A stretch of 64,000 nucleotides of DNA from Alkalispirochaeta sp. (GTDB lineage: Bacteria; Spirochaetota; Spirochaetia; DSM-27196; Alkalispirochaetaceae): assembly GCA_965242725.1 (NCBI GenBank), contig CBDESZ010000013.1:1-64000 (forward strand), written 5' to 3'. Under the pieces are notes generated by a model, which searched no databases, was not told the DNA's origin, and saw nothing but the letters and a program-made list of their open reading frames with translations. Every line of letters starts with the position of its first letter. Position 1 is the stretch's first letter. Below, piece by piece: positions 47,377-63,961 of the stretch. Both the position numbers and the translations under genes were made by a program.

Positions 47377-48993
47377 TCAGAAGACGACCTGGGTCAACAG
47401 CAGTATTACACCGATGACCACGGCAACGCTCAGGGTGATGGGAAGTATCATCCGTAGAATAACTCCCTCTTTTCCGAGAATCCCGCCCGTCGTCGTACCG
47501 AGAATGATATTCCCGGGACAGACGGTGTTTCCGATAGCACCGCCCGCGGTCTGGGCACCGAGAATGGCGTTCTGGGAGAGTCCAAGGAGCCCCGCCGTCG
47601 TTTGCTGGAACTGCCCGAACAGCACGTTGGACGCAAGGTTACTGCTGGTGATGAAGGAGCCGAGGATTCCGACCATCGGCGCAAGGCCGACATAGAATAT
47701 GCCCGCGACTTTGGCTGTCCCTTCTGCGAGCACCTGGACCTGACCGGTGGCGCTCATGAGCCGGGACATGACGATGAGCAGGACGATCCCGATTGTCGCC
47801 GGGAGTGTCTTCTGAGCGGTTCTGCGGAATACCCTCCCCAGTCCGCCGACTTCCACGGCACCGTGACGCTGAAAGAACGCGTACCCTGCCATCGCCGCGA
47901 TAAAGAGGAAGATCCCGGGATGAATGAACGGCCGTATCGGTGAATACTTGGCCGCAGCTTCATTCACAAAGCCGTAGGCCGTTGCAGTTTCGGGAAACCG
48001 GAAACCGACGCTGACCTGGCTGAAAAAACCCTTGACCGGCGGGAAGAGAAGGACCCCAAGGGTAACGACGATAAGGATGTAGTAGGGGGCAAATGCCTGG
48101 TGAACGGAAAGCGACTTGATTCCCTCCCGTGGAGCTTCATGGTGGTCGACAAATTCACGATCCATCACCGGGCTCTCTTCAATGCTCCAGGGCTCGTGAA
48201 AGCGCTTCAGCTTTCCGAGGGAAAAGATGACCGCCAGAGCGATACTCGCGGGAACAAAGGCGGCGAGAGTCTCGTTGAACTGCGTTAGAAGTACCTGTCC
48301 GCCACCCTGTATGAGACTGATGATGACCACCGCGGGCCATACTTTTTTTACCGCCCGCATTCTGCCGTACCAGAAAGCAATTGTGAATCCCGAAGTCACA
48401 TTGAACACCCAGATGAATACGGCTGCCCAGAATGCCGTCATGCCGACGGCGTCTCCGGAAAGTCCCGTCGTCGTGACGAGCGCTTCCCACGCAACGGAGA
48501 GCGTACCGAATGTATTTGCCCATGCGTGACCGAGAAGAGCGATCGTTACCGCCCAGAGCGGACGCACACCGATTCCGATCAAGAGCGGCGCGCCGACTGC
48601 AACGGGTACACCAAAGCCGGTGACTCCCTGCAGAAAACTGACAAAGACCCAGCCGAATGTCAGAACCTGCAACAGTTCGTTCGGTGAGATCCGCTGCAGT
48701 CCCCGTCGAAAGACGTTGAATGCTTCCGCCTCATGGGTGACTTCGTAAATGAGAATCGCCGGCCAGATGGTTATGAGCACGGTCAGGGATCCCCAAACGC
48801 CTTTCAGGGTCTCAAAAAACAGAAGCTGTCCATTTGCCTTGTAGAGGACCAGGGCGACTACCGCGGCAAGGACCAGTCCCATAGGCGCAGCCTTCGCGGC
48901 GCCCCACTGGAGCTTCACCATTAAAAAAAGCAGTGCGACGATCGGCAACGATGCCGCAATCCACATCACTATTGAAACCGGTATTGATTCCAT
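47377..48993 (-). CDS. L-lactate permease (LctP) family transporter
   Basis: FLQGVTGFGVPVAV, GSFITSSNLASNVLFG, AQTAGGAIGN. Confidence 0.88.
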   Translation of the reverse strand: MESIPVSIVMWIAASLPIVALLFLMVKLQWGAAKAAPMGLVLAAVVALVLYKANGQLLFFETLKGVWGSLTVLITIWPAILIYEVTHEAEAFNVFRRGLQRISPNELLQVLTFGWVFVSFLQGVTGFGVPVAVGAPLLIGIGVRPLWAVTIALLGHAWANTFGTLSVAWEALVTTTGLSGDAVGMTAFWAAVFIWVFNVTSGFTIAFWYGRMRAVKKVWPAVVIISLIQGGGQVLLTQFNETLAAFVPASIALAVIFSLGKLKRFHEPWSIEESPVMDREFVDHHEAPREGIKSLSVHQAFAPYYILIVVTLGVLLFPPVKGFFSQVSVGFRFPETATAYGFVNEAAAKYSPIRPFIHPGIFLFIAAMAGYAFFQRHGAVEVGGLGRVFRRTAQKTLPATIGIVLLIVMSRLMSATGQVQVLAEGTAKVAGIFYVGLAPMVGILGSFITSSNLASNVLFGQFQQTTAGLLGLSQNAILGAQTAGGAIGNTVCPGNIILGTTTGGILGKEGVILRMILPITLSVAVVIGVILLLTQVVF

Positions 48994-49033
48994 CTATGAA
49001 TACCTCTCCTTCATTAAATGCTGTTTCACGCCG

Positions 49034-50524
49034 TCAGCCGAAAAAGCGCCCGTGAAAACTCTCGCGATCCATGTTTTCCAGATACATTTTCCGGTAACGG
49101 CTGATTTCTTCGTTCCCCGGGGCCGGGGCGCCGGGCCCGCCGAGACCGAGCTCCCGGACTATTTCCTTCCCCTCCAAAAGGAGTTCCTTTTCATCCACCG
49201 TGACCGCGACCCCATCTCTGACGACCATTTTGCCGTCTACCATGACGTCCCGGACTGCCGACTCGTTGCTGTAGTAGAGCAGTTGCCTCACCTGGTTTTG
49301 TCCCGGCTGCCAGGTAATATTATCGGGGGAGAGAAGGACGATATCGGCCTTGCAGCCCTCTTCGAGAGATCCGAGACCGCCGCCCTGTCGGGAATTGCGG
49401 TCCACGACGCGGGCACCTCCGTGAAATACCATACGAAGGGCAGATGCCGCGTCTATCCACTTTTCGTAATCGACCTCCAGAACGCGATGTACCAGGGCGG
49501 TGAAACGCGCAACCTCAAGCATATCCAGGGATCCAAGATTTCCGCCGTCGGTTCCCAGAGCCACCGAAATACCGCGGTCCCGGTAGGTACCCAGAGGCGC
49601 GACGCCGCTGCCGAGATGGAGGTTGCTTCTGAGGCAGTGCACGATCGTTGCATTCCGCCGGGCAATGAGATCGATTTCGCGGTCGTTGAGCCAGACGCTG
49701 TGAACAAAGGACATCCTCTCGTTTATTGCGTCCAGATCGTCGACGAGGTGCTCAATGACGCCTTTGCCGTAAACCCGTTCCGCGAAGACCCGTTGTGTCT
49801 TTGCCTCAAGGAGATGGGTCTGCCACCCGCAGCGGGTTTCCTCTTCAAGCTCGACGGAACGGCGGAGCAGATCATCGGAACAGCGCTGTGGTGCATCGGT
49901 ACCGAGGGAGACGTGGAGACGACTGTGTTTGCCGTTCCAGCGGTGGACGAGCGCCCTGACAACCTCTATGTACTCCTGCGGACTCTGCGCCGACGGGCGG
50001 GGAGCCGCGGTCGTGCGCCGTTCATCAGGCCCGAAGGGAACCGTTTCATCAAATGGCTTGTCGGCAAACATCGGTGCCACAACCGCACGGATCCCGGCGT
50101 CGTCATACGCCCGAAGTCCCGCCTCAACGCCTTCCACTGTCTGTACCGGCCGCTGGGCGTAATGATCGACGAATGAGGTGACTCCCCGTTTCAGCATCTG
50201 GAGGGCGTCAAGCTGCGCGCTTATATACATCGCCCTGTCGTGTCGCGCGGTGCCCCCTGCGATGGCGTAGAGCATATAAATATCGAGGGGTACCGCGTCG
50301 ATGCTGCCCTTGAGCAGCCCCGCATAGGAGTGCCCGTGGGCGTTGATCATCCCCGGAATTGCCCACATCCCGGCAGCGTCGATCGTCTGGTCGACGTCGC
50401 CGGAATTCAGCTCACCCGGAGCACCTATCGTACCGATCCGGTCGTTTTCAACAATGACATCCCGGGGGACAAATGCGTCACATTCCCTGTTCAGAAGGGA
50501 TGCTCCGGTTATCAGTGTCTTCAT
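49034..50524 (-). CDS. Amidohydrolase superfamily deaminase (AtzA/SsnA/MtaD-like)
   Basis: PGMINAHGH, QTHLLE, FVHSVWL, ALGTDG; start MKTLITG with a CAGGAG RBS. Confidence 0.88.
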   Translation of the reverse strand: MKTLITGASLLNRECDAFVPRDVIVENDRIGTIGAPGELNSGDVDQTIDAAGMWAIPGMINAHGHSYAGLLKGSIDAVPLDIYMLYAIAGGTARHDRAMYISAQLDALQMLKRGVTSFVDHYAQRPVQTVEGVEAGLRAYDDAGIRAVVAPMFADKPFDETVPFGPDERRTTAAPRPSAQSPQEYIEVVRALVHRWNGKHSRLHVSLGTDAPQRCSDDLLRRSVELEEETRCGWQTHLLEAKTQRVFAERVYGKGVIEHLVDDLDAINERMSFVHSVWLNDREIDLIARRNATIVHCLRSNLHLGSGVAPLGTYRDRGISVALGTDGGNLGSLDMLEVARFTALVHRVLEVDYEKWIDAASALRMVFHGGARVVDRNSRQGGGLGSLEEGCKADIVLLSPDNITWQPGQNQVRQLLYYSNESAVRDVMVDGKMVVRDGVAVTVDEKELLLEGKEIVRELGLGGPGAPAPGNEEISRYRKMYLENMDRESFHGRFFG

Positions 50525-50540
50525 GGCCGACTCCTGCTTT

Positions 50541-51827
50541 CTACCACGTACCGTATACGACCCTGGGCAGCCAGAGGCTAATATCCGGGACATAAGTGAC
50601 CAGAATGAGGGTGACGATGGAAATGGCAATGAACGGCAGCGCTCCCTTGGTGACACGCATGATGGAAAGATCCGTTACCCCGCTCGCAACGAAGAGGTTG
50701 AGTCCGAATGGCGGTGTGAACATTCCGATCGCGCAGTTGACGGTGACGATGACACCGAGATGGATGGGATCGATTCCGTATTGAAGGGCGATGGGCATGA
50801 GCAATGGACCGAGGATCGTAATTATCGACGCGCCGTCGATAAACATTCCCGCCACGAGGACCGCGATATTTATCATCACCAGGACCGCGATCTTGCTGTT
50901 GCTTATCGATACGATTCCCTGGGTGATGCCGACGGTAATTCCCTGGCTTGTAAGTATCCACGAGAAGACCGCGGCGGAGGAGAGAATGATCATTACTCCC
51001 GCGGTAGTCACCGCGGAGTTTACGAGAACGCCGTACAGGTCCTTCCAGGACATCTCCCGATAGACGAACATCGCAACGATGAGCGCGTAAATGACCGCAA
51101 CGCCCGCCGCTTCCGTGGGAGTGAAAATACCACCGTAGATACCGCCGATGATGATAACGGGAACACCGACACCCAGCGTTGAACCCTTGAACGCGTCAAT
51201 GACCTCTTTGGCGCTTGGCCGCTTTGTTACCACGATTTCCTTGTGGCGAATTGCGTAAATGTAGCTGTAGATCATGAAGAGCAGCCCGAAGAGAGCTCCG
51301 GCGCCGAATCCCGCCATGAAGAGCGTACCCACCGACGTTCCGGTGACCGCGCCAAAAACGATCATCGTGACACTCGGAGGAATGATGATTCCAAGGGCGC
51401 CCGCGGAGGTGATCAGGCCGGCGGAAAAGTTCTCTCCGTACTTGTTCTCCAGGAGCGGGTGATACAGGATGGCGCCGATGGCGATTACCGTAGCCGGTGC
51501 CGATCCCGAGATCGCGCCGAAGAAGAGGGAGGCGAGAATCGCCGTCATCCCCAGTCCGCCGGGAAGAAAGCCGACAAGACCCCGTGCGAGATCGACAAGA
51601 CGGCGGGAAATACCTCCCTTGCCCATGATATTTGCCGCAAGGATGAAAAATGGAATTGACATCAGGGCAAACTTGTTGAGACCCGCAAACTGACGCAGGA
51701 TAACCGTGGTCAGGGGGAAATCGGTCATCGTGGCAAAAATGATCAGGACCGTTCCTGAAAGAGCCACGAAAATAGGCGCGTTCAATACCAGAAGCAGCGC
51801 AAGAATACCGAAAATTGCGACTGTCAT
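50541..51827 (-). CDS. dctM: TRAP transporter large permease
   Basis: SIPFFILAA, AISGSAPAT, IFTPTEAA, IDPIHLG. Confidence 0.93.
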   Translation of the reverse strand: MTVAIFGILALLLVLNAPIFVALSGTVLIIFATMTDFPLTTVILRQFAGLNKFALMSIPFFILAANIMGKGGISRRLVDLARGLVGFLPGGLGMTAILASLFFGAISGSAPATVIAIGAILYHPLLENKYGENFSAGLITSAGALGIIIPPSVTMIVFGAVTGTSVGTLFMAGFGAGALFGLLFMIYSYIYAIRHKEIVVTKRPSAKEVIDAFKGSTLGVGVPVIIIGGIYGGIFTPTEAAGVAVIYALIVAMFVYREMSWKDLYGVLVNSAVTTAGVMIILSSAAVFSWILTSQGITVGITQGIVSISNSKIAVLVMINIAVLVAGMFIDGASIITILGPLLMPIALQYGIDPIHLGVIVTVNCAIGMFTPPFGLNLFVASGVTDLSIMRVTKGALPFIAISIVTLILVTYVPDISLWLPRVVYGTW

Positions 51828-52330
51828 GCCACTGCCTCCGGAATATGGGATGTATCGGCGGGATTCTTCAAATGGGCGACAAACATCTGTATAAACCGGA
51901 GCGTCATCATGACCCCGCCAAGGCCGATCGGCAGATACATAAGCCACATGGGCAATGACATCGCCGGCGAATATTGTTTCAGTTGATATGTTTCAAAGGT
52001 AAGACGAAATCCAAAGACCGCAAGAAAGATCACAAAACCTATCGTGATGACGTAGGTCACCGTCGTGAGCCTCCATGCGTTTTTTTTACTTACCGAATCT
52101 ATAAGGGCGGAAACCGATAAATGGGCGTATCGCCGTGCGACGCCACCGCTTCCAAAGAACACGATCCATACGATCGAGAAACGAACGTACTCTTCCGCCC
52201 AATGGAGTCCATGGGAAAATACGTATCGAAGAACTATATTGACGAAAAGAACAATCGCGCCGCTGAGAAGACCGATTCCCATGATCCCGTCTTCAAGCGC
52301 GGTCAGCGCCTTGTCGATTTTTTTCCACAT
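51824..52330 (-). CDS. dctQ: TRAP transporter small permease
   Basis: LRYVF..WAEE, SPAMSLPMW; 4 TM. Confidence 0.9.
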   Translation of the reverse strand: MWKKIDKALTALEDGIMGIGLLSGAIVLFVNIVLRYVFSHGLHWAEEYVRFSIVWIVFFGSGGVARRYAHLSVSALIDSVSKKNAWRLTTVTYVITIGFVIFLAVFGFRLTFETYQLKQYSPAMSLPMWLMYLPIGLGGVMMTLRFIQMFVAHLKNPADTSHIPEAVA

Positions 52331-52359
52331 CCTGTGCCTCTTCTTCCAAGAAATGAGAA

Positions 52360-52390
52360 ATGCGGCGACGATTCGTTCTCGTCGCCGCAT
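52360..52390 (-). other. Intergenic stem-loop between dctP and dctQ
   Basis: ATGCGGCGACGA-N7-TCGTCGCCGCAT, perfect 12-bp stem. Confidence 0.7.
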
Positions 52391-52422
52391 CTCCACGTTA
52401 TTCAGAACGAATCTGGCCGGAA

Positions 52423-53427
52423 TTACCGGGCAGCTTCGATCGCCTCGTAGATCCGGTCCAGAGTATCCCGACCGATTGTACTGGCGAAATTCTCGTGAAC
52501 GGGTCGCGTCGCTTCCTCAAAGGCTCTCCGCTGTTCATCGGTGAGGCGAATGACGGTGGTACCGGACTCCTCGATCGTCTCGATGAACCCTTCTTCCCGC
52601 TCTATGGTGACCTGTCGTTCATACTGAGCAGCTTCAATGGCCGCATCGGAGATGATCTGCTGCTGTTCAGGGGTCAACCGATCGTAGAACGCCTCAGAAA
52701 CGAGAAACGCGTATGCAAGATAGCCGTGATTGCTGAGGGCCATGTAGTCCTGCACCTCGTAGAAACGCATGTTCACGATCGATACGAGGGGGTTTTCCTG
52801 GCCGTCGACGACTCCCTGCTGCAGGGCGTTATATACCTCGGCAAAGTCGATGGGGATCGCATTTGCACCCATGGCCTGAAACTGCTGAATCAGGATGGGG
52901 CTTTCCATGACGCGAATCTTCGTCCCGTCGTATGACTGGGGTCCTTCGATGGGGAAGCTTGTGGTGAGCTGCTTGAACCCACTCTCCCAGAACGCAAGGC
53001 CGACAAGATTCTTCTCCCGCAGGTCGTCCATCAGACTCAAACCTACCTCGCTGTCGAGCACCTCATAGGCGACTTCACGACTGGGGAAGAGAAACGGAAG
53101 GTCGACGACCTGCAGAGCAGGGTCAAACCCGCTCAGTTTGGCGGTGGGGACGAGTCCCGCTTCGACGGCGCCGTTCTGCATGAGCTCGGTGACCTCGATG
53201 TCACTGCCCAACTGCCCGGCGGGATATATCTGAACGGTGATCGAGCCGTTGCTTCGCTCTTCCACCAGTTCCTTGAACCGGACGCTTCCGAGATGCTGCG
53301 GCGTCGTTTCCGGCAGGTCATGGCCAAGTTTCATGACCACTGCTCCGCCTTCTCCCTGACCGCCGGCAATGAGAAACGCCGGAACCAGAAGCACTATCAG
53401 CGCGATGAGACTGATAACCTTTTTCAT
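52423..53427 (-). CDS. dctP: TRAP substrate-binding protein
   Basis: YPAGQLG, KIRVM, YNALQQGVVDGQENP. Confidence 0.94.
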   Translation of the reverse strand: MKKVISLIALIVLLVPAFLIAGGQGEGGAVVMKLGHDLPETTPQHLGSVRFKELVEERSNGSITVQIYPAGQLGSDIEVTELMQNGAVEAGLVPTAKLSGFDPALQVVDLPFLFPSREVAYEVLDSEVGLSLMDDLREKNLVGLAFWESGFKQLTTSFPIEGPQSYDGTKIRVMESPILIQQFQAMGANAIPIDFAEVYNALQQGVVDGQENPLVSIVNMRFYEVQDYMALSNHGYLAYAFLVSEAFYDRLTPEQQQIISDAAIEAAQYERQVTIEREEGFIETIEESGTTVIRLTDEQRRAFEEATRPVHENFASTIGRDTLDRIYEAIEAAR

Positions 53428-53456
53428 ACAAACCTCCTGTTAGTATGCGGTTTCAC

Positions 53457-54704
53457 TTAGAAACCATATTTTTCTGCAAACGCCACAAGGGCGTCCTGAA
53501 AACATTTCAACGGCGGAGTCACGATTCCCGCCCCGACCTGACCGACTCCCGGCTTCTTGTGGGCGATACCGGTATTGATGACGGGCAGAATGCTTGTCTC
53601 CACGACGGCACGAATATCGATACCGGTGGGAGCTCCCTCAAAGTTCATCGTCGGCATGACGTAGTGGGGACTCTTGCCGATCGTAATTTCTCCCATCTCC
53701 CGGGTAAACCGTATCGCCTCGTCCACGCTTGAGGCGCCGACAAACTGGGTTACCGCCGGCGCGGAGGCCATCACCATGCCGCCGAATCCAAAGGTTTCGA
53801 CGATCGTGCTGTCTCCGATGTCGGGGTTTGCGTCTTCCGCGGAATAGCCGGGAAAATACAAACCCCTCGGCTGTTCAACGGGTGCTTCAAACCAGGTATC
53901 ACCAAGTCCGCTCACGCGGATTCCGAAATTGGTACCGTTCCGGGCCATGGCCGTGACCACCGTCGATCCCTCGATATCCCGTACGGGGTCCATCGTCGCC
54001 TTTCCTGCAGCCATGGCGAGGTTGAGAAACCACTGCTCGTTCCCCGAAACGAACTCGATGATTCGCTGAAGAACGTCGATGTCGGTTATGGTCTTGCTCA
54101 GGGGCGGGAAGAACTCCCGACAGAACATCGCAGAGGCTGCAATGTTTCGTTGATGCATTTCGTCGCCCATGGCCAGGGCCTTTGCGAGGAGAACTTTCAG
54201 GTTGACGCCCCCCATGGCGTGAATCGTCTGTTTTACCGCAGGTGCAAGTTCGTCTCTGATCCAGCGCAACCGGTCAAGAACGGAGTCGTCGTTTGCACCG
54301 AATCGCATCACCTTTCCGAGACCTTCATTGATTGTGCAATACGCCTTGTTTCCGAACGCCGTGTTTTCCACCTCAAATACGGGCATCGAATAGGTGGTCA
54401 GCCCGGTCATCGGACCGACGGCGTCGTAGTCGTGATTCGGCCGGAAGGTGATCTCTCCGGAGGCGGCCAGTTTTTCCGCTTCCTCCTCCGTCTCTGCAAG
54501 ACCTTCAAATCGGATTGCACCGATGATCGCTCCCTTGAGGGGACCGCACATATCTCCCCAGGCGAGAGGGGGCCCGGCGTGAAGGATCGTTTTCCGATCC
54601 AGATCGGGCAGAATCTCGTGACGATACTTTACGTCGACGAGGACTGGCTCACCTTTGTTTATTCGTGAAATCGCCTCTTCATTTGCTTTTTCAATATCGA
54701 TCAT
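53457..54704 (-). CDS. DUF1116 protein, YlbE/AllG-like (oxamate carbamoyltransferase subunit family)
   Basis: ILHAGPP, NEGLGKVMRFGA, MGDEMHQRN, DIGDS, INTGIAHK..GVGQVGAG. Confidence 0.88.
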   Translation of the reverse strand: MIDIEKANEEAISRINKGEPVLVDVKYRHEILPDLDRKTILHAGPPLAWGDMCGPLKGAIIGAIRFEGLAETEEEAEKLAASGEITFRPNHDYDAVGPMTGLTTYSMPVFEVENTAFGNKAYCTINEGLGKVMRFGANDDSVLDRLRWIRDELAPAVKQTIHAMGGVNLKVLLAKALAMGDEMHQRNIAASAMFCREFFPPLSKTITDIDVLQRIIEFVSGNEQWFLNLAMAAGKATMDPVRDIEGSTVVTAMARNGTNFGIRVSGLGDTWFEAPVEQPRGLYFPGYSAEDANPDIGDSTIVETFGFGGMVMASAPAVTQFVGASSVDEAIRFTREMGEITIGKSPHYVMPTMNFEGAPTGIDIRAVVETSILPVINTGIAHKKPGVGQVGAGIVTPPLKCFQDALVAFAEKYGF

Positions 54705-54740
54705 GCTGGTATCTATCCTCCTTCTTGTGTACCTGAATCT

Positions 54741-55694
54741 TCACGGGACGATATGAGTCCCGACGCTCCCGTTCAAACCGTCCAGAACGTTTTCCAGGGA
54801 CGTAATCGTCGCCGTTCTGCCGGTAGACCGGGCAAACTGCGTTGCCGCTTCTACCTTCGGGCCCATGGACCCCGCGAGGAAGTGGCCTTCAGCGGTCAGC
54901 CGGTCGATTTCGTCAAGATGTACCGTCTCCAATGCCGACTCATCGGGTTTTCCATAATTGATGAGAACGTTGGGTACGTCGGTAAGGATCATGAACCGAT
55001 CGGCAGAAACAAACTCCGCGAGCAGTACTGCCGCTCTGTCCTTGTCGATCACCGCGTCGACACCCACGTAGTTGTGTTCGTCTTCCCTGGCAACGGGAAT
55101 ACCACCGCCGCCAACGGCAATGACGACCAGACCCGCGGCCACGAGGGAACGGATCGCCGTCTTTTCAAGGATGTCCTTCGGCTGCGGTGACGGGACGAGA
55201 CGGCGCCACCCTTTCTCCGATTTGGGATCGACGCGGCGTACGATGTATCCTTTTTCATCGGCAAGCCGCCTGGCGTCGTCTTCACGGTAGAACGGTCCCA
55301 CCGGCTTGGTCGGGTTCTGAAAATCGGGGTCGTCGGTGTGTACGACCACCTGGGTCACCACCGTCGCAACGGGTGCGTGTATCCCGAGGCTGTGTACGTG
55401 ATAGCGCAGCCTGTTCTGAAGCATCCACCCGATATGTCCCTGCGTCATTGCACCACATGCATGCAACGGCTGGTCCGGCACAAGGTCGCGTCCCTGCTCC
55501 TGTTGAATAAGCAGCGAACCAACCTGAGGTCCGTTGCCGTGGGTAAGGACGACCCGATACCCCGCCTGAAGGACCAGTGCGATCTGACGTGCCGTCGCGT
55601 CTACGTTTTTTAATTGCTCTTCAGCCGAACCGCTGTCGCCGGCTTTTTTTATCGCATTACCGCCCAGGGCGATAACTATCGTTTCGCTCATCAT
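54741..55694 (-). CDS. arcC: Carbamate kinase
   Basis: IALGGNA, THGNGPQVG, NPTKPVGPFY, GGGGIPV, AVIDKD, GSMGPKV. Confidence 0.96.
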   Translation of the reverse strand: MMSETIVIALGGNAIKKAGDSGSAEEQLKNVDATARQIALVLQAGYRVVLTHGNGPQVGSLLIQQEQGRDLVPDQPLHACGAMTQGHIGWMLQNRLRYHVHSLGIHAPVATVVTQVVVHTDDPDFQNPTKPVGPFYREDDARRLADEKGYIVRRVDPKSEKGWRRLVPSPQPKDILEKTAIRSLVAAGLVVIAVGGGGIPVAREDEHNYVGVDAVIDKDRAAVLLAEFVSADRFMILTDVPNVLINYGKPDESALETVHLDEIDRLTAEGHFLAGSMGPKVEAATQFARSTGRTATITSLENVLDGLNGSVGTHIVP

Positions 55695-55739
55695 CGGCCT
55701 CGTAAATTCTGAAAATAGTTTGTGATGTGTTACAGCTTC

Positions 55740-55768: not shown

Positions 55769-55957
55769 GTGTTTTGCGATATTACTTTTCATATTGATAT
55801 ATATTTTCGAATATAAAGTACTTATTGCAATTCATTTTCGCTTCCAGCTTAACGAATGAAATTCACGGCGGTGTCGGGCGCCGAAAGGAGGCACTCGCCA
55901 TGGACGTGGATACGGCGTCGGGAGGGAGGAGATAGAATTGTACAGGAGTTTCGTTTT

Positions 55958-56440
55958 TTACACGCGGTCGGATTTGAATCGCCGCAGGAGAAAGTCGGTT
56001 TTCACTTCCTGCATGCCTTCGATATCGACAAGATACCCTTCCACAAATTCACCGACATCGTTAATGCTCGCAAAAAAACCGTGAACGTGCAGAGAATTGC
56101 GGGCACTCATTTGATACACTGTCACAATATCGGGATGTCGGGCAATCTCTTCAGCGGCACTTTTCACCTTGGACGGCTCAAACATGATGTCAAAAAACGC
56201 GGGCAGCGGCTTTCGTATGTAATCCGAGGGTATGACGACGGTAAACCGCTCTATGACCCCGCGCCGCTGCAGGGAAGAGACACGCTCCGTCACCCCCGGA
56301 CGGGAGAGACCTACCAGAGGCGCAAGTTCGGAATAGGATATCCGGGAGTTGAGGTTCAGGTACTCCAATATCTTCCTGTCCGTTGCGTCGAGACTGTCGT
56401 CCCAGTCCCACTGACTCGTACTTGCTTCCATTTCAGACAC
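55958..56440 (-). CDS. Lrp/AsnC family transcriptional regulator
   Basis: LDATDRKIL..RISYSELA..GLSRPGVTER..GVIERF. Confidence 0.92.
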   Translation of the reverse strand: MSEMEASTSQWDWDDSLDATDRKILEYLNLNSRISYSELAPLVGLSRPGVTERVSSLQRRGVIERFTVVIPSDYIRKPLPAFFDIMFEPSKVKSAAEEIARHPDIVTVYQMSARNSLHVHGFFASINDVGEFVEGYLVDIEGMQEVKTDFLLRRFKSDRV

Positions 56441-56888
56441 GACCCATTTTATACCGTCTCAGGAGAAAATCAGTTTTGATCTCCAGAATTCCTTCAAAAC
56501 TGACAAGAAACTCGTCCACAAACTCCCCTACCTCGCCGATATCGTGGAAAAAGCCGTGAATATGAAGTGAGTTTTTTGCACTCATCAAATTGACGGTCAC
56601 GATGTCGGGATGCGACGAGATCGCCTCCGCCGCCTCATGCACATATTTCGGTTGAAAACGGAGCTCAAAATAGACGGGCAGCGGTTTGCGCACAAACTGG
56701 GGAGGAACACTGATGGTAAACCGCTCAATCACCCCCCGGGTGCGCAATGATGAGATACGTTCCGTGACACCCGGTCGGGACAATCCCACTTTCTTCGCGA
56801 TTTCTGAATAGGACATCCGTCCGTCTTCACTGAGCAGAGCAATAATCGCAGTGTCAATTTCGTCCAGAACAGGCGTTTCGACTGCCAT
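56433..56888 (-). CDS. Lrp/AsnC family transcriptional regulator
   Basis: LDEIDTAII..DGRMSYSEIAKKVGLSRPGVTER..GVIERF. Confidence 0.92.
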   Translation of the reverse strand: MAVETPVLDEIDTAIIALLSEDGRMSYSEIAKKVGLSRPGVTERISSLRTRGVIERFTISVPPQFVRKPLPVYFELRFQPKYVHEAAEAISSHPDIVTVNLMSAKNSLHIHGFFHDIGEVGEFVDEFLVSFEGILEIKTDFLLRRYKMGRV

Positions 56889-56933
56889 GGGATTCCGTCT
56901 CCCTTTTCGTACTGAAAGTATTTTTTATTTGTG

Positions 56934-56973
56934 AAAAAGTGCCACTGGTGAATTTATTATTCTCCAGTGACAC
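56934..56973 (-). terminator. Probable rho-independent terminator after the fused TRAP permease
   Basis: Imperfect stem GTGTCACTGGAGAAT..ATTCACCAGTGGCAC followed by TTTTT on the minus strand. Confidence 0.55.
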
Positions 56974-57005
56974 CAAAGCACCGCAATTTTACCGCAAATT
57001 ACAGA

Positions 57006-58856
57006 TCATGCAACCACATGGCGACGCCTCCGCAGCAATTGCAACACCACAACGATGATAATCGCCGAGAAGCCGATGATGTCCGTTTCCACTCCCTTGA
57101 AGACGAGCGCCAGCGCCGCCACCGCCATGAAGAGCTGATCCACGACGCTGGAACGGACAATCAAATATCGCTGCATAAACGCGCCGAAACTCAACACGCC
57201 AAGAAGGGCGGTCATACTGTTCCATATGACGTTCTGAACTTCACCCATTCCCAGCAGGGACGGAATGAAGACAAACATGAATGGAATGTAGTAGATGGAA
57301 AGCCCCATGCGCAGCGAATGAACTCCCGTTTTCCACGGATCGGCGTCGGCGATTCCCGCGGCAACATACGCCGAAAGACAGACCGGTGGCGTAATCACCG
57401 CCAGCTGACTCGTCCAGAAGACGAAGAAATGCGCCGCCAGCAGGGGTACACCCATTCGTGACAGCGCCGGAGCGGTCAACGTTACCAGCAGGAGGTAGGC
57501 GGAACTCACATTCATTCCCATTCCGAGGAAAAAACTCGCCACGAGGGTCAGCAGCAACGCGACGATGAGAACGCCCCCGGAAAGATCTATAACGATCGAG
57601 GAGAATTTCATGCCGAGTCCGGGCAACGCGATACCGGCGACGACAATTCCTACAACACCTGCCGTAACGGCCATGATCAGACCGGAACGGGCGCCTTCCG
57701 ACAGTGTGGCAACGACATCCTTCACGCTCATGCGGTCGTGCTTTCTGATCATGGAGAGAAGAAAGGTCAGGGCAATCGCGGCGATTCCCGCACGTGCCGG
57801 GGAATATCCGGCGGCAATTATGTAAATGATCAATGCGATGGGCAGTAAAAAGTACCCGCCCCGTTTCATGACACTTGAAACGCTCGGCAGCTCCGATTTC
57901 GGAATGCCGGGTACTCCGTCCCGCTTGGCTTCGAGGTATACCTGAAAGAGCATACTCGCCAGGAAGAGGAATGCAGGGATAAGACCGGCAACAACGATTT
58001 CCGTGTAGGGAACGCCCATCAACGCGGCCATGAGGAACGCGGCGGCACCCATGATGGGGGGCAGAAACTGGCCGCCTATGGAAACCACCGCCTCCACCGC
58101 CGCGGCAACGTGTCGCTTGTACCCCCGAGAAATCATCATCGGTATCGTAATGGATCCGGTTACCGCCGTATTTGCAGTTGAAGATCCCATGATGGAACCG
58201 AGGAGCGCGCTTGAAAGGACCGCCGCCTGTCCGGCTCCGCCGGTGAACCGGCCGACCGTCGCTTTTGCGATGTCTATGAAGAACTTCCCTCCTCCTGAGT
58301 TCTTAATAAAGACACCAAAGATGATGAAGAGGAAAATAAACGTCGAGAAAACATACGCGACCGAACCGAAGATGCCGTCGGTACTTGCGTACATGAAACT
58401 GACAATCCTGTTCAGGCTGTATCCTCGATGGCCGAATGCACCTGGTATGAGGTTTCCGAAGTAGTTGTATGCCAGTGCAACCACGGCAATCGACGTGAGG
58501 GTGACGCCTACGGAACGACGCGCCGCTTCCATGACCAGGATAATCGTCAAAATGCCCATGGTCATGTCCATAGCGGAGAGGGGGATCCCGGCGCTTTCGG
58601 CCATTCTTGGAAATTCGACGATGTAGTATCCCACCCCCACAACGGAGAGTGCCGCAAGGAGTGTGTCAATTGACAGGGCAACCGTTCCGACGGCCCCCTT
58701 TCGCTTTGGATTGATGAGAAATGTCAGCACCAGGGCAAAAAGAATGTAAAGCCCGCGACTGACGTGAGCCGGCCAGACGCCGAACGCAGCCTGAACGATA
58801 AAGACGAGAGAGTAACCGACGGCAAGCCAGTCGATAACCGTTTCTCTTATTTTCAT
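57006..58856 (-). CDS. TRAP transporter fused permease (4TM/12TM, TAXI type)
   Basis: DGIFG, GSITIPMM, GGQFLPPIMGAAAF, ITPPVCL. Confidence 0.93.
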   Translation of the reverse strand: MKIRETVIDWLAVGYSLVFIVQAAFGVWPAHVSRGLYILFALVLTFLINPKRKGAVGTVALSIDTLLAALSVVGVGYYIVEFPRMAESAGIPLSAMDMTMGILTIILVMEAARRSVGVTLTSIAVVALAYNYFGNLIPGAFGHRGYSLNRIVSFMYASTDGIFGSVAYVFSTFIFLFIIFGVFIKNSGGGKFFIDIAKATVGRFTGGAGQAAVLSSALLGSIMGSSTANTAVTGSITIPMMISRGYKRHVAAAVEAVVSIGGQFLPPIMGAAAFLMAALMGVPYTEIVVAGLIPAFLFLASMLFQVYLEAKRDGVPGIPKSELPSVSSVMKRGGYFLLPIALIIYIIAAGYSPARAGIAAIALTFLLSMIRKHDRMSVKDVVATLSEGARSGLIMAVTAGVVGIVVAGIALPGLGMKFSSIVIDLSGGVLIVALLLTLVASFFLGMGMNVSSAYLLLVTLTAPALSRMGVPLLAAHFFVFWTSQLAVITPPVCLSAYVAAGIADADPWKTGVHSLRMGLSIYYIPFMFVFIPSLLGMGEVQNVIWNSMTALLGVLSFGAFMQRYLIVRSSVVDQLFMAVAALALVFKGVETDIIGFSAIIIVVVLQLLRRRRHVVA

Positions 58857-58899
58857 GTTGTTACGCCTACCTTGGAAACGGATTCGTATATCTGTCTGT

Positions 58900-58938
58900 T
58901 CGACGACCGGGAGGATGATTCATCCCCCCGGCTGTCGA
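58900..58938 (-). other. Intergenic stem-loop between the TAXI SBP and its permease
   Basis: TCGACGACCGGGAGGATG..CATCCCCCCGGCTGTCGA, imperfect inverted repeat. Confidence 0.55.
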
Positions 58939-58976
58939 TAGTATGTATTGAAACCGGTGAAAAAGGTACGACCGAA

Positions 58977-59972
58977 TCAGTCGATCAGACCTGCTTCCCG
59001 ATAGAACCGTTCCGCACCGGGATGGTACGGCAATTCTATGGATTCAAAGTGCGCCTGTCCCGGTTCCATTTCCCTGAAGGCAAGCTGCACTTCCTGAAGG
59101 TATTCACGACCGGCATCACTGTACATCGCCTTGAGCATTTCATATATGACCCATTCCGGAGCGTCTTCCCGGGCTACCCATAGAACGGTATACCCAACGG
59201 TTTGCACCGGTTCGGTCACGCTCTGATACCCCGCACCCGGTTGAATCGTGTATGCCACATGGTAGGGATAGGCGTCGAGAAACCGGTCGATATTCGCCTG
59301 GTCGACGGAAATCAGCTTCATGTCGATGGATGCTTCCAGCTCGACAAGAACGGGAACGGGAGTGGCACCGCCGATGAAAAAGGCGTCTATATTGCCGTCA
59401 CGCAGGGCGGAGGCGGAGTCGTTGAAACTCAGGTTGCTGCGATCGACCCGGTCCCACATACCGACGCCACGAAGGAACTCTTCCGCTACGGCGGCGCTGC
59501 CCGATCCGGGAGGACCGATGGAAACGCGTTTCCCCGCCAGGTCAGCAACGGAGTTGATGCCCGTACGATCGCGGGTGACGATATTCAGCGCACCGTTGTG
59601 GACAAGCGCAACCGCACGCAGGCCGTCGTACTCCTGTCCTTCAAACTGTCCCTGTCCGCGGGCAATGTTGTACGCAACGGAGCCATAGGAAAAACCCATA
59701 ATGCTTTCGCCTGCGGCCATGAGGCGTGCGTTTTCCACAACCCCCCGGGTCACCTCGGCGTTCACCGACAGGCCGTCAACTTCGCGGCTCGTGAGCGAGG
59801 CGATACCGGTACCGGCAACGTAAAATGTTCCGCCCTGACCGCTCGTCAGAAAGGATACGTTGGCTTCCCGCGCACCGCCTTCCGCCGCTGCGCCGCCTTC
59901 ACTTTGACCGGCGGCAAAAACCATTGCTGCCGTCATTACCAACACGATACATATCGTTGTAACTCGTTTCAT
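58977..59972 (-). CDS. TAXI family TRAP solute-binding protein
   Basis: GQGGTFY, DLAGKRVSIGPPGSG, ALRDGNIDAF, PYHPGAERFYRE. Confidence 0.93.
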   Translation of the reverse strand: MKRVTTICIVLVMTAAMVFAAGQSEGGAAAEGGAREANVSFLTSGQGGTFYVAGTGIASLTSREVDGLSVNAEVTRGVVENARLMAAGESIMGFSYGSVAYNIARGQGQFEGQEYDGLRAVALVHNGALNIVTRDRTGINSVADLAGKRVSIGPPGSGSAAVAEEFLRGVGMWDRVDRSNLSFNDSASALRDGNIDAFFIGGATPVPVLVELEASIDMKLISVDQANIDRFLDAYPYHVAYTIQPGAGYQSVTEPVQTVGYTVLWVAREDAPEWVIYEMLKAMYSDAGREYLQEVQLAFREMEPGQAHFESIELPYHPGAERFYREAGLID

Positions 59973-60148
59973 CTGGAACTCCTTTGATACCATTGAAATA
60001 CGTTCTGCATATTCCTGAACCGATCCCGTTTTACATATTTTCCGGTCGACACCACCTCCTTACAGATTCCACGTATCCTTCAATTACAAACTGACGGCGT
60101 CGGCCGAACAGGCTTGTACATTTCCGCTGCCGCATGGGGCAGATGAAA

Positions 60149-61342
60149 TTAATTGAAGGAAACATCGTCATTCCGGCGCCGCAGCGTCACGCCGTTGCGG
60201 ATCACCAGTAACGGCGGCGCCGCGTTGGCGATCACTTCCCGGACGTTTTTACCTTCCAGAACGGTAATATCCGCCCCGCCCTTCGCGTTTATACCGCCCG
60301 CTCCGAGAGCGCGGCCAAAGAGTTCCTCCGCGTCGTCCGTCACCGTTCCGAGCAACTGTTCCCGTTCTTCCGCCGTAAAGAATCGATGGACGTAGGCGAG
60401 AAGCTGAACGATGTGAAGCACGTGTGCTCCGCCGAGGGGATTGAAAAAGTCGCCCACGTTATCGGAGCCGAGGTTGACGGGAAGCCCCGCGGAGAGGAGC
60501 GCCTTTGACACGGTGAGATTTCGCGTGGAAATCGCCGTCGGTGCAATGATAAAACGCAGCCCCGCGTCCTTTGACAGCGCGATTGTATCGTTCACGGTTT
60601 TGTCGTCCATCGCTGAAAGGGAACAGGCGTGAATCGCGTTGACCTTCCCCTGCAGCTTTTTCTGCATGACCTGTCCCGCCAGATAGGGCAGGAGAAAGTG
60701 TTCCGCCTTTCCCGACTCGTCCACGTGAAAATCACAGGTCACCCCGAACTCCCGGGCGATATCGAGAATTGTGTCTATGTGACCTTCACCGTCTTTGTCG
60801 ATGATCGTGTGTCCACCGACACCGTCTCCGCCGAGTTTCAGCGCCTCCCTGAGCAGCCGGGGCGTATCGGGATAGTTGAACACCCCTTCCTGGGCAAAGG
60901 GCACGACCTGAATCTGTACCGCTTCCTTCAACTCCTCCCGCAGCCGCAACAACGCCCGGACCCCCCGCAACTCAACGATGGGGTCCACGTCCACGTTTGT
61001 ACGAATGGCAATCGTTCCGTTTCCGACGGCGCGAACGATGACGGAGCGGGCGTTCCGATAGATATCCTCTTCCGTAAGTTGAGCCTTCATCTCACGGGTG
61101 AGTCGTCCCTTGTCCGGAGGCGCGACATCCTGGTATTCCGCCCGGAGGGCGAGCATGGACTTGTCGAGATGCATGTGGGCATCGGCGAATCCGCCGATAA
61201 CCACGTTTCCCATTGCGTCAAAGTCACTCTCCGTGGCCGGTGTGCTTCCCGGCGGGGATACTCCGACGATGCGGGTCTCCACGATCTCGATATCCCTGAG
61301 CGTCCCCCCAAGATTCGCGTTCCGAATGAACATGCTTTTCAT
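60149..61342 (-). CDS. Amidohydrolase, cytosine deaminase (CodA)/AtzC-like
   Basis: DAHMHLDK, DFHVDE, AIHACS, GSDNVGDFFNPLG. Confidence 0.87.
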   Translation of the reverse strand: MKSMFIRNANLGGTLRDIEIVETRIVGVSPPGSTPATESDFDAMGNVVIGGFADAHMHLDKSMLALRAEYQDVAPPDKGRLTREMKAQLTEEDIYRNARSVIVRAVGNGTIAIRTNVDVDPIVELRGVRALLRLREELKEAVQIQVVPFAQEGVFNYPDTPRLLREALKLGGDGVGGHTIIDKDGEGHIDTILDIAREFGVTCDFHVDESGKAEHFLLPYLAGQVMQKKLQGKVNAIHACSLSAMDDKTVNDTIALSKDAGLRFIIAPTAISTRNLTVSKALLSAGLPVNLGSDNVGDFFNPLGGAHVLHIVQLLAYVHRFFTAEEREQLLGTVTDDAEELFGRALGAGGINAKGGADITVLEGKNVREVIANAAPPLLVIRNGVTLRRRNDDVSFN

Positions 61343-61347
61343 CGTCC

Positions 61348-62453
61348 CTATTTCTCGGCTATGACGGCGATGAGGTTTGAACCGCGCGGGCCCTGATGCT
61401 CCCATCCCGCCGATGCGAGAACCATGGAGTCTCCGACGAGGGAACCGACGACGCTGTTCACGACGGCCTTGGCGATAATGCCTGCATACCCGGCCAGAAA
61501 ATCAGAGTGCATGGTGTGACGGCGGCCGCGACAGTGGGGCAACGCGTTTGCTCCGGCGTTGATGAAGACGGCGGTGAGTTTCTCCCGCTCCGCGTCGGTG
61601 AGCTGATCTTCAATTTTGAGCCCGGCATCGCGAATTGTCTGCTTGGCGGCGGGCAGGTCCAGGGTATCTTTCATCACACCACTTGCGACGAAATGTCTGC
61701 TCACCGATCGTGTGGAGTTGCCGATGACCACCACGCGACACCCCGTCTGTTCGTTACCGGCGGAGGTCGTCGCAACCTTTGAATAGAGATCGAAATCGCT
61801 GTTGATCGACTGGTTGGTCACCTTCTCCCGAGGCACCTCTCCAAGGGCTACCGCCGCGCCTAATGCACATGCTCCCTTCGCGCGGTTTGACGCCTCCCCC
61901 GCATTGGTTGTGTACAGCGTCTTTCCCCGCCCCTGGGCGTCGGCCAATTCTGGCCGCCGTCATGGCCGGCATTTTTATGGAAACGCAGTGCACGTCTTCG
62001 GGCCCTTCAATGTGAGCCTCCTTCATCGCCTGATGCACCGCCTCGACGACGAGATCAACCTGGGTCTCCACGCCGTACTCTTCCGGATAGAGATCCCGTG
62101 TGGTGACGACACCCACGGCAAGCCGCTTGGTCCCCGGGCGCATCGATTTCCACTTCCCGCGTCGCAAATGCGACTGCGTGGGGGCTCATGATTCCCGGCG
62201 GTAAGGCCCGATCATCAGCATCGGAACTTTCTTGAAGACCTCTTCCTTGGAGAGACCCATCGGTCCGCTCAGAAGCTCCTCGTACGCCAGCGTTGCAAAA
62301 CCGCGGGAGTACACATCTCCTTCGGTTTGGGCGATAATCGCCCGCAGTTCATTTACGTTCAGTTTTTCCCGAATCAATAAGCTCGGCCATACCCGAAACG
62401 TCGTCGGGCGACGCCATGCCGTATCGAAAAACGTCTACATCAATGCCTTTCAT
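61348..62453 (-). CDS. Ring-opening amidohydrolase of the cyanuric acid hydrolase (AtzD)/barbiturase family, divergent; about 5 frameshifts
   Basis: Joined fragments: MKGIDVDVFRYGMASPDDVSG, QTEG, MSPH, KRLAVG..TRDLYPEEYG, DVHCVSIKMP, ALGAAVALGEV, TSAG, GVMKD, RGRRHTMHSD, SAGWEHQGP. Confidence 0.88.
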
Positions 62454-62464
62454 CTTTTCTCCTT

Positions 62465-63961
62465 CTACTGCTGTGATTTTTTTGTTTTCGATCCGTCTTT
62501 GTTCCCCGCCGCCTTTTCAGTCGCTTCATCCAGGGCTATAAGCGCATCGACAAATGGTTTCCAACGGTACTTCCGATACCCCGGCCCCGATCATTCCCAC
62601 GCCCGCTTCCCTGCTCGCAACGGCGGTGTTGATTTTCGGCCGCCTTTGCAGCTCCACAACGCTCATGACGTCAATACCGAGGGGCAATCCCCGCTCGCCG
62701 TTGAAGGCGGACCGATACCGGTCGTGCTCGCCGTGGCATATTTCATACATCTCTTCGGTTGGTGACGAGGGCATTCTCCGCTCCCTGCATCCCGAGAAAA
62801 GGAACAAGGGCGGGAGCGACTCCCATGGCAAAGGCGCCCATGCCAAGGACCTCAAGAATCGCGCTGTCGCCCAGGTCGGGGCACGCGTCTTCTTTGGAGT
62901 ATCCCGGAAAGAACAGCGCCTCAACAGGCGGTGCAGGGGGTCGTAAAACCACCGACCGGGGAGCCCGCTTATACGTATGCCCACCTCATACCCGTTTCGC
63001 GCAATCGCCGTGACGATACTGGAAGGGAATATGCCGTCCGCCGGCATCGGCAGCCGCCTTATTTGAAGCCATGACGAGGTTCAGGAAGAGCTGATCGTTC
63101 TTTCCGGAGAGAAAGCGCGATATGTCCTGGAGCACCTGCCGGGGAATTTCCTGGTTCACAAGTCGGGCGTAGAGGAAATCGCGAAACATGACCGTCGATG
63201 CGGCGTTACGCATGTGCAGCTCATCGCCCATTTGAAGCGCCCTGCCGATAAAGGAACCGAGATCGATGCCGCCCTCTTCCCGCAGCACCAGCTGTTTCAG
63301 CACCGGTGCGTAAACCTTCTCTATCCACCGAAGCCGTTCGATCGTCTCCTCTTCGTAGGCACCGAAAGCGGATGACGTTGCCCATCCCCTCGTTGATCGT
63401 GCTGTAGGCGGTGTTGCCGTATTTTTCGTTCCGAATTTCATACAACGGCATTGAAACCGAGGTGATGCCGGTCATCGGTCCCACCATGCCCGCTTCGTGA
63501 CATGGCCGGAAGGTAATCTCACCGCGTGCCGCTATTCGTTCCGCCTCTTCCGGGGTCGCCGCGACGCCTTCATAGATCAGGGCGGCATAGACCGCCCCCT
63601 TCATAGGCCCGCTCATATGTTCCCATGTAACCGGTGGCCCCGCGTGAAAGAGCGTATGGGCGTCGGCTTCAGGAACCACCTCACCCAGTGTCTTGATATC
63701 AACGAGTCGCGGCTCCGCCGATTTGAGGCGTTCCACCACTTCATCGTTTGCGTTACGAATCGCCTTCATTGCGCGTACCCGCTTCAGCCTTTTTTTCTCA
63801 TGCGTTTCGAGAATCGACTGAAGACGCTCATCGCCGCCGGCGGCAGGCTTCCAGTCCAGATGGACCACTTTCCGTCCCTGCTTCTCCAGGTCTTCCGCGA
63901 AGGATCTGATTCCGATATTCACCACTTTGAGTTCTTTACCAAACAGGTCTTTTATTGCCAT
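62465..63961 (-). CDS. DUF1116 protein, YahG-like with an N-terminal extension; multiple frameshifts
   Basis: N-terminal VVNIGIRSFAEDL..LDWKPAAGG, FHAGPP, NEGMG, MGDELHMRN, TAIARNG, FFPGYS..DLGDS, GVGMIGAG; corrected stop TAG at 62465-62467. Confidence 0.85.

Follow-up and report, generated by a model that had tools for sequence, protein, structure and literature searches.

A conserved gene cluster in Alkalispirochaeta combines a one-dyad AtzD-fold hydrolase with paired AllG proteins, FdrA and carbamate kinase

The AtzD family of Toblerone-fold proteins (PF09663) has two known reactions and several orphan groups. Breakdown of heterocycles coupled to ATP formation via carbamoyl phosphate is already described for the allantoin route and the 2,8-dioxopurine pathway (bioRxiv 10.1101/2025.04.24.650524). 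In the anaerobic allantoin route of E. coli, AllFGH convert oxalurate to oxamate and carbamoyl phosphate, a reaction reported to require all three genes (PMC11326118), and allFGHK has been noted beside triuret and biuret genes in nitrifiers (PMC12625717). Here we describe an Alkalispirochaeta gene cluster that brings a PF09663 hydrolase together with two AllG (DUF1116) proteins, FdrA and carbamate kinase. The stretch analyzed, called the window throughout, comprises bases 1-64000 of the 66393-base contig C13 in genome G000 (4.34 Mb, 91.8% complete). Genes were called from a list of open reading frames (ORFs) and from family-profile scans (Pfam, and TIGR/NCBIfam with curated cut-offs). An initial annotation, made from the window's sequence, had described a co-oriented block of ∼16.6 kb and read it as an energy-conserving pathway for N-heterocycles; every gene that it named was confirmed, all on the minus strand and in the order first given, between 47377 and 63961 (Table 1).

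The cluster is a real, conserved and undescribed variant assembled from known enzyme families: we found no description of its one-dyad hydrolase subfamily, of its pair of AllG types (Q and M) or of their linkage in the open-access literature, subscription papers lying outside that scope. Like AtzD, TrzD and the cyanuric acid hydrolase of Moorella thermoacetica (EC 3.5.2.15; PF09663), the window hydrolase has the family fold, Ser233-Lys162, Arg54, Arg325 and Ser344, but its subfamily is set apart by six substitutions (positions 42, 85, 195, 296, 298 and 345) and a four-residue deletion before Arg54. An asymmetric active site and a ring other than cyanurate would be shared with barbiturase (Rhodococcus, group VI) and the orphan groups IV and V, although other positions are altered than in barbiturase, which keeps three Ser-Lys pairs together with Asn195, Lys325 and Val345. 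The likeness to E. coli AllFGH and AllK lies in fdrA/allF, a Q-type AllG, carbamate kinase and the proposed phosphorolysis of an acyl-urea; unlike that route, the window has two AllG types, a separate FdrA tail, a ring hydrolase with deaminases and no upstream allB/C/D/E, and allH was not found in the genome. The uncharacterized E. coli yahEFG-yahIJ set also groups DUF2877, FdrA-like, DUF1116, carbamate kinase-like and amidohydrolase genes, but it lacks an AtzD-fold gene, has a single DUF1116 gene and carries an N-type motif in YahG. The 2,8-dioxopurine pathway, with YgeW and the carbamate kinase YqeA, is likewise an anaerobic heterocycle breakdown yielding ATP via carbamoyl phosphate (bioRxiv 10.1101/2025.04.24.650524); it uses the YgeW carbamoyl transferase, SsnA, HyuA and a reductive entry, whereas the window genes encode no redox step.

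The linkage between the hydrolase and AllG recurs well beyond Alkalispirochaeta. A first hydrolase scan gave 20 loci, whose neighbors were assigned by BLAST against the window proteins. A second, profile-based scan gave 105 confirmed matches, 80 of which were kept, and 50 of these 80 genomes (long contigs being favored) were searched whole. Grouped by record titles, with sequence used to place two records in the Bacillota group and two among the cyanobacteria, and with one record of Flavobacteriaceae title counted in the proteobacterial-type group, the 50 comprise 19 anaerobic Bacillota-type, 10 proteobacterial-type, 13 cyanobacterial-type, 7 Paenibacillus and 1 Acidimicrobiaceae genomes. AllG is present in 19/19 anaerobic Bacillota-type and 10/10 proteobacterial-type genomes, and in 0/13, 0/7 and 0/1 of the other three groups. 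In all 29 AllG-bearing genomes it lies ≤8 kb from the hydrolase, and in 20 of the 29 two copies stand within 13 kb. The neighborhood survey thus bears out the hydrolase-DUF1116 linkage of the initial annotation, with 29/50 genomes set against a background of 300 random Clostridia genomes in which AllG exceeds the cut-off in 10. Related genomes among the 50 are not independent; nevertheless, the AllG link recurs in two phyla and in the Alkalispirochaeta genome. Within the Alkalispirochaeta lineage the cluster is patchy: PF09663 occurs in 0/40 relatives of G000, 16 of them in the same genus.

Other members of the block follow the hydrolase to differing degrees. Carbamate kinase, whose co-occurrence had also been predicted, is found in 27 of the 29 AllG genomes and within 13 kb in 19. 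The LctP-like carrier is present in 17/19 anaerobic Bacillota (within 11 kb in 15/19) and 0/10 proteobacterial-type genomes; among the ten background Clostridia with AllG, its subfamily occurs in three and adjoins AllG in two. Directly downstream of the hydrolase, all 26 Bacillota including Paenibacillus carry a CodA-like gene. The CodA-like protein of the window has HxH, His and Asp metal motifs, reaches no NCBIfam cut-off and has AtzC as its best solved relative (E 3.5e-42). The SsnA/AtzA-like amidohydrolase is present in the window as first described, but it is accessory in relatives: an ortholog (≥40% identity) occurs in 8/19 anaerobic Bacillota and one proteobacterium, within 11 kb in five. 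TAXI-TRAP orthologs at 54-61% identity were seen in 5 of the 20 first-scan loci (L004, L005, L007, L009 and L010), with 56-60% for the solute-binding protein, and DctPQM orthologs in one. Regulators in the relatives' loci examined are of PucR or GntR type, not Lrp, with purine-catabolism (PucR) regulators in eight Bacillota and Paenibacillus loci. In the cyanobacterial loci L017, L018 and L049 the one-dyad hydrolase follows a GntR regulator (by Pfam in L049); in L018 and L049 it precedes an HbpS/GlcG-like gene, after which L018 has a canonical hydrolase.

We further examined the hydrolase itself by aligning the window read-through and an intact relative, P0001, to solved structures (AtzD numbering is used unless Moorella is stated). 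Of the family assignment made initially, to an AtzD/barbiturase-type hydrolase, the family and fold stand: the window hydrolase pieces match the Toblerone-fold profile PF09663, and the predicted model of P0001 (predicted local distance difference test 94.1) gives template-modeling scores of 0.93-0.95 to cyanuric acid hydrolase, with 47% identity to 6BUP. A protein atlas search returned PF09663 clusters only. By residue signature, the protein is neither an ordinary AtzD nor an ordinary barbiturase. Both aligned sequences retain Arg54, Lys162, Ser233, Arg325 and Ser344, while Lys42 is changed to Gln, Ser85 to Ile, Arg195 to Lys, Lys296 to Asn, the metal ligand Glu298 to Gly and Gly345 to Ala, and four residues are deleted ahead of Arg54 relative to cyanuric acid hydrolases. 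Of the three Ser-Lys pairs (42/85, 162/233 and 296/344) that mark cyanuric acid hydrolases (groups I-III), only 162/233 is complete, and the Arg195/Arg325/Gly345/Gly346 plus Glu298 signature reads Lys, Arg, Ala, Gly, and Gly at 298. The barbiturase (group VI) signature of Asn195/Lys325/Val345 with three dyads (PMC3758960) is absent in the alignment to 5HWE, and Lys42, Ser85 and Lys296, kept in groups IV and V (PMC3758960), are lost, the placement being by residues. These changes are shared across the subfamily. When 68 of 120 listed homologs were aligned, Gln42, Ile85, Lys195, Asn296, Ala345 and Ser233 were invariant (68/68) and Lys162 was found in at least 90%. The Gln/Ile/Asn pattern is present in all 22 subfamily sequences, from Bacillota, cyanobacteria, Paenibacillus, Proteobacteria and Acidimicrobiaceae (one of them, L099, keeps Arg195), and three canonical sequences keep Lys/Ser/Lys. 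Peat 2013 describes the Lys/Ser residues as conserved in all 68 homologs of the six groups then known (PMC3758960).

The loss of two of the three Ser-Lys pairs makes cyanurate an unlikely substrate. A cyanurate/ammelide pathway, running from ammelide by deamination to cyanurate, then by ring opening to biuret or carboxybiuret and on to phosphorolytic cleavage, would agree with the automatic annotation of subfamily proteins as cyanuric acid amidohydrolase, with the AtzC-like deaminase and with locus L022, where a canonical hydrolase stands ∼6 kb from fdrA and AllG. It seems very improbable nonetheless, as two of the three dyads and Arg195 are changed, many hosts also keep a canonical enzyme, and the L022 AllG beside that enzyme is of a third motif type.

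What the subfamily keeps points to an active enzyme. Structures of the Moorella enzyme place the start of catalysis at site B (Ser231-Lys161, Arg52, Gly84 and Glu235), and Shi 2019 reports some variation in the other two triads (PMC6557486). In the 68 aligned members, Ser231, Arg52, Gly84 and Glu235 all have invariant counterparts, and the counterpart of Lys161 is present in at least 90%. Site A is altered (in Moorella numbers, Ser83 to Ile, Glu87 to Gly/Ala, Gly348 to Ala, Lys40 to Gln and Lys299 to Asn), and at site C Lys replaces Arg; all three oxyanion sites retain a basic residue (Arg, Lys, Arg). Since site B is kept and site A is rebuilt, we infer a live enzyme acting on a ring that differs from cyanurate in the substituent at the site-A position. 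An opposing view, improbable in our judgment, is that the AtzD-fold protein opens no ring but acts on a linear acyl-urea (triuret, carboxybiuret or oxalyl-biuret) or only binds a ligand, the AllG pair forming a heterodimer that works on an imported ureide. AtzD is reported to be inactive after the single loss of Lys42, Ser85 or Lys296 (K42A, S85A and K296A; PMC3758960), the metal Glu is lost here too, and a second PF09663 gene, canonical in both copies aligned, is present in 12/13 cyanobacterial-type genomes. Such a second gene also occurs in 3/7 Paenibacillus genomes and in the Acidimicrobiaceae genome. Against this view, the site-B catalytic set is conserved across phyla, and the hydrolase is the only PF09663 gene in G000 and in each of the 19 anaerobic Bacillota-type genomes (a second gene in 0/19).

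Further variants of the fold were seen. The Paenibacillus hydrolases of L073, L076, L078, L081 and L084 lack ∼20 residues right after the Lys162 motif, and the divergent PF09663 proteins P0123, P0126, P0128, P0142 and P0143 show other losses of Ser-Lys pairs, so more subfamilies exist.

The second distinctive element of the cluster is its pair of AllG proteins. Alignment of 26 AllG proteins separates, within an Asp-Glu-x-His-x-Arg-Asn motif, a Q type (His-Gln-Arg-Asn) from an M type (His-Met-Arg-Asn), with further linked sequence differences. One Q and one M copy are present in all 11 two-copy clusters read (the window, seven Bacillota and three Proteobacteria). The types rest on motifs and pairwise identity, as cross-phylum identity between types is not much below that within a type (50-58%). 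E. coli AllG is of the Q type. Asn at the variable motif position (N type) characterizes E. coli YahG, a paralog on contig C33 of G000 and the L022 copy beside the canonical hydrolase. The window's upstream DUF1116 gene had been called YahG-like with a start at 63961; neither point stands, as its motif is not of the YahG type and that start belongs to a separate FdrA-tail ORF of ∼58 residues, fused to the DUF1116 gene by one extra base. In L004, the FdrA tail is likewise an ORF of its own (56 aa). A search beyond position 64000 for fdrA, as the initial annotation had advised, located fdrA/allF at C13:63972-65536, so that allF and allG, two of the three genes of an oxamic transcarbamylase, are present and adjacent.

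Two further loci bear on AllG. L102 (G000:C33:1-1410) encodes the third AllG, which is YahG-like, of N type, carries a fused FdrA tail and is cut by the contig start. With its fdrA outside the assembly, a second allFG cluster, perhaps with allH, would fall in an assembly gap. In L022 (9497-19778), the ∼6-kb spacing of the canonical cyanuric acid hydrolase from fdrA and an N-type AllG hints that biuret-type ureides may also be cleaved phosphorolytically.

In the assembly, the hydrolase and M-type AllG genes are broken by frameshifts, most likely assembly errors near the contig end. DNA of the cluster is present in four sequencing runs of one sample; three lack coverage of the broken stretch and X1 provides the sole contig across it. 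This contig (X1 record 7, depth 4.3) covers 61603-64000 and differs from the assembly by 12 one-base gaps and zero substitutions, and removing the 12 single bases yields an intact 366-aa hydrolase and a 432-aa DUF1116/AllG. Along its whole length the read-through hydrolase shares 56% identity with the L004 protein; its C-terminal piece shares 80% with P0108, a homolog that is intact; and the downstream intact genes show no differences in any run. We take the frameshifts as assembly errors because the X1 contig lacks the 12 bases, the frames are restored and the homologs are intact. The X1 evidence is an assembly difference rather than independent support, as the X1 run is probably the source sample. 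Real frameshifts, a concern that the initial annotation had itself raised, would make both genes pseudogenes; we rejected this as unlikely on the intact homologs and the intact X1 frames, the latter from one low-depth contig that is probably of the same sample.

Altogether, a general route from ring to acyl-urea to carbamoyl phosphate to ATP is probable. In this scheme, the TAXI/TRAP carriers would import the ring compound and the one-dyad AtzD-fold enzyme, whose Ser233-Lys162 pair is observed, would open it through that pair; the CodA/AtzC-like enzyme may replace an amino or imino group by oxygen, either on the closed ring or once it is open. The product would be an N-acyl-urea, oxalurate or a close analog, which FdrA and the two AllG types, by likeness to the known E. 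coli AllFGH, could cleave with phosphate into carbamoyl phosphate and an amide acid such as oxamate. Carbamate kinase, identified by family membership, would then make ATP, and the LctP-like carrier may export the amide acid. Of the pathway first proposed, the linkage is secured; the order of deamination before opening, the double cleavage and ATP formation keep the standing of predictions.

The identity of the ring can be put forward tentatively. We propose, short of even confidence, that the cluster catabolizes a small non-symmetric cyclic acyl-urea, for which an oxidized-purine remnant is the leading candidate. With similar reserve, the acyl-urea could be oxalurate, derived from an oxonate-type triazine carboxylate or from a parabanate/imino-parabanate ring. 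On paper, an oxonate-type carboxylate opened at a carbonyl would lose CO2 to leave an amidine that the deaminase converts to oxalurate, and parabanate or its imino analog would give oxalurate directly. Oxalurate is favored because of the Q motif, the HpxW-like neighbor in 3/10 genomes, the purine-type regulators and the co-location with triuret and cyanurate genes. The HpxW-like protein adjoins the hydrolase or AllG in those three proteobacterial-type genomes, and its best solved relative, 5HFT, is the oxamate amidohydrolase HpxW (PMC12360370). Triuret and cyanurate are described as urate oxidation products (PMC7948467), as are parabanate and oxalurate (PMC5703782). A gamma-glutamyltransferase-like gene beside the hydrolase in Paenibacillus L077 was considered as HpxW-like and rejected, as it scores as a true gamma-glutamyltransferase.

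Several observations weigh against this proposal. The window AllG shares only 49% identity with E. coli AllG and 47% with YahG, so that the transfer of substrate is by motif likeness. The DUF2877 gene allH, which the initial annotation had advised looking for beyond position 64000 together with fdrA, was not found in G000 (91.8% complete, with C13 ending ∼0.9 kb upstream of fdrA) by its family, by the proteins of eight relatives or by a ninth query; it is present in the relatives' clusters L029, L038, L043, L087 and L091. The inactivity of the single AtzD variants means that the hydrolase could be slow or even dead. In 10 of the 29 AllG genomes no carbamate kinase gene lies within 13 kb, and in two of them none was found; no CodA-like ortholog was found at E 1e-55 in the 24 non-Bacillota, of which the proteobacterial ones keep both AllG types. 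At the threshold used, neither G000 nor any of the 19 anaerobic Bacillota has the HpxW-like gene. Spontaneous opening of parabanate to oxalurate, slow at neutral pH (PMC5703782), lessens the need for an enzyme, and oxidized purines should be scarce in anoxic habitats. Carbamoyl phosphate could feed nitrogen supply instead of energy, and 21 of the 50 genomes (cyanobacterial-type, Paenibacillus and the one Acidimicrobiaceae) pair the hydrolase with hydrolytic partners and have no AllG. These AllG-less hosts have isochorismatase-family, amidase, acetamidase/formamidase, fumarylacetoacetate-hydrolase-family, AtzE and AtzF genes, and their loci carry canonical cyanuric acid hydrolase, BiuH-like, AtzE or AtzF genes. 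With 21/50 hosts of this kind, ATP coupling would be one branch of hydrolase use. Isochorismatase-family neighbors in L073, L077, L084, L088 and L091 score far below the BiuH and RutB cut-offs and were left unassigned. The acetamidase/formamidase genes, found within 9 kb of the hydrolase in two proteobacterial-type and four cyanobacterial-type genomes of the 50 and in the Bacillota loci L010 and L011, would be compatible with other substrates too; neither a formamidase nor an HpxW-like gene lies in the window itself.

Two other ring types, the barbiturate type and the 5-azauracil type, compete seriously with this proposal. In the first case, a barbiturate with or without a substituent at C5, formed by deamination of an aminopyrimidine such as 6-aminouracil, would be opened to a ureidomalonate-type acyl-urea and cleaved to malonamate and carbamoyl phosphate, making the enzyme a second, independent barbiturase tied to ATP. 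The basic residue at all three oxyanion sites fits three carbonyls, ureidomalonate is the direct homolog of oxalurate, 6-aminouracil is listed as a urate oxidation product (PMC12107670), and RutB-like and amidase-signature enzymes occur in AllG-less hosts. We consider this doubtful, as the Asn195/Lys325/Val345 signature is absent, the HpxW-like neighbors point to oxamate, and C5, which faces Gly348 in the Moorella-barbiturate complex (PMC6557486), would here meet only Ala. The case for a triazine-2,4-dione carrying H or methyl at C6 (5-azauracil type, formed by deamination of 5-azacytosine or a guanamine) is weaker still. Opening of this ring would yield an acyl-biuret, and two cleavages by the two AllG types would release two carbamoyl phosphates and leave formamide or acetamide. 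The triazine enzyme AtzC is the deaminase's closest solved relative, the Ile that replaces Ser83 would accommodate an apolar substituent, acetamidase/formamidase genes are found near the hydrolase in 6 of 50 genomes as well as in L010 and L011, and some AllG-less loci carry BiuH-like and allophanate hydrolase genes. Formamide, however, is a poor fit for the LctP acid carrier, and the cyanobacterial formamidase-like gene also adjoins a canonical hydrolase. We know of no abundant natural source of 5-azauracil-type rings, which counts against them too.

Returning to oxidized purines, a more specific scheme is possible, if rather unlikely: a one-dyad Toblerone class that opens an oxidized-purine ring such as oxonate, with the two AllG types removing two carbamoyls in turn (acyl-biuret to oxalurate to oxamate), so that anaerobes would gain two ATP per ring without a redox step while aerobes and cyanobacteria use hydrolases for nitrogen. 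Oxonate is an analog of orotate. The orphan Toblerone structure PDB 5HY0 bears the title 'orotic acid hydrolase', which shows that carboxylated rings have already been considered for the family. Upstream of the hydrolase, pyrE-like genes or a whole pyr operon occur in two phyla (L043:1782-9871, L049:7359-7991 and L051:3744-4310); this may be chance and was not counted.

The features of the cluster are collected in Table 1. The block extends ∼1.5 kb past the window, starting at fdrA/allF, and the contig ends ∼0.9 kb farther upstream. Gaps of 118-264 bases precede the TAXI gene, the Lrp pair and the carbamate kinase gene, which suggests several transcription units; a promoter scan gave matches at chance level (6 vs 8.8 expected). 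At the other end, the stem-loop, placed by consensus scan only, separates the block from the convergent gnd gene. On the plus strand at 43578-47260, convergent with the cluster, lie genes for a HAD-like hydrolase, a lactate-racemase-family protein (LarA N-terminal) and 6-phosphogluconate dehydrogenase, which show no link to it in relatives.

Table 1. Features of the cluster, from its upstream end, in window coordinates unless C13 is stated
Feature	Position	Strand	Evidence and remarks
fdrA/allF 3' end, CoA-ligase-like subunit of oxamate transcarbamylase	63972..64000 (whole gene C13:63972-65536)	-	PF00549 at C13:64005-64262; frameshifted in the assembly
Small ~58-aa protein like the C-terminal tail of E. 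coli FdrA	63785..63961 (end approximate)	-	NF004760 positions 509-553
DUF1116/AllG, M type, 432 aa in read-through	62465..63769	-	PF06545; split by one-base insertions
AtzD-fold (Toblerone) cyclic amide hydrolase, one-dyad subfamily, 366 aa in read-through	61348..62453	-	PF09663; split in assembly
CodA/AtzC-like metal-dependent deaminase (predicted)	60149..61342	-	Begins 6 bases after hydrolase stop; metal motifs
TAXI-TRAP solute-binding protein	58977..59993	-	TIGR02122 224.8 bits, cut-off 84
Fused TRAP permease (TAXI type)	57006..58856	-	TIGR02123 577.8, cut-off 320.7
Lrp/AsnC-family regulator 1	56433..56888	-	Family scans
Lrp/AsnC-family regulator 2	55958..56440	-	Family scans
Carbamate kinase	54741..55694	-	TIGR00746 405.2 bits, cut-off 358.25
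DUF1116/AllG, Q type, 49% identical to E. coli AllG (YlbE)	53457..54704	-	PF06545, motif alignment
DctP solute-binding protein	52423..53427	-	Family scans
DctQ small permease	51824..52345 (start approximate)	-	Family scans
DctM large permease	50541..51827 (start approximate; open frame to 51947)	-	Family scans
TRZ/ATZ (SsnA/AtzA-like) metal amidohydrolase	49034..50524	-	Family scans
Lactate-permease-family carrier	47377..48993	-	PF02652 met; TIGR00795 249.4 bits, below 341.15 cut-off
GC-rich terminator-like stem-loop, T-tails on both strands	47303..47331	.	Consensus scan only

The absence of biuret hydrolase, allophanate hydrolase, urease and allantoinase, first stated for the window, extends at cut-off to the whole 91.8%-complete genome, as does that of AllD, with one near miss, an allantoinase-like gene on contig C18 (337 vs 358 bits). 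For allB and allD of the E. coli allantoin pathway, TIGR03178 and TIGR03175 have no above-cut-off match in G000 and none in the block. The C18 gene belongs to a separate purine cluster at the contig end (L106:5963-16765) with a frameshifted deaminase, adenine-deaminase-like, purine-permease-like, YgfK-like and SsnA-like genes, all named from reading translations except for the allantoinase score; this end was considered as a continuation of C13 and set aside, as the purine cluster is separate and no join is shown. On C2, a second carbamate kinase gene (L103:4797-17881) is surrounded by genes for molybdopterin dehydrogenase subunits, a MobA-like protein and a CodA-like amidohydrolase.

The one-dyad subfamily offers a natural test of the catalytic Ser-Lys pair, on which the structural reports disagree: Peat 2013 favors Ser85-Lys42 (PMC3758960), as opposed to Ser231 in the Moorella enzyme (PMC6557486). 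Cyanuric acid amidohydrolase, the name given automatically to these proteins, is probably incorrect, and surveys of triazine-degrading capacity that count them would come out too high. Resolving the substrate would give AllG paralogs their first reaction beyond oxalurate, would bear on the uncharacterized yah genes of E. coli, and may point to anaerobes of gut, digester and lake as a sink for purine-oxidation or triazine compounds.

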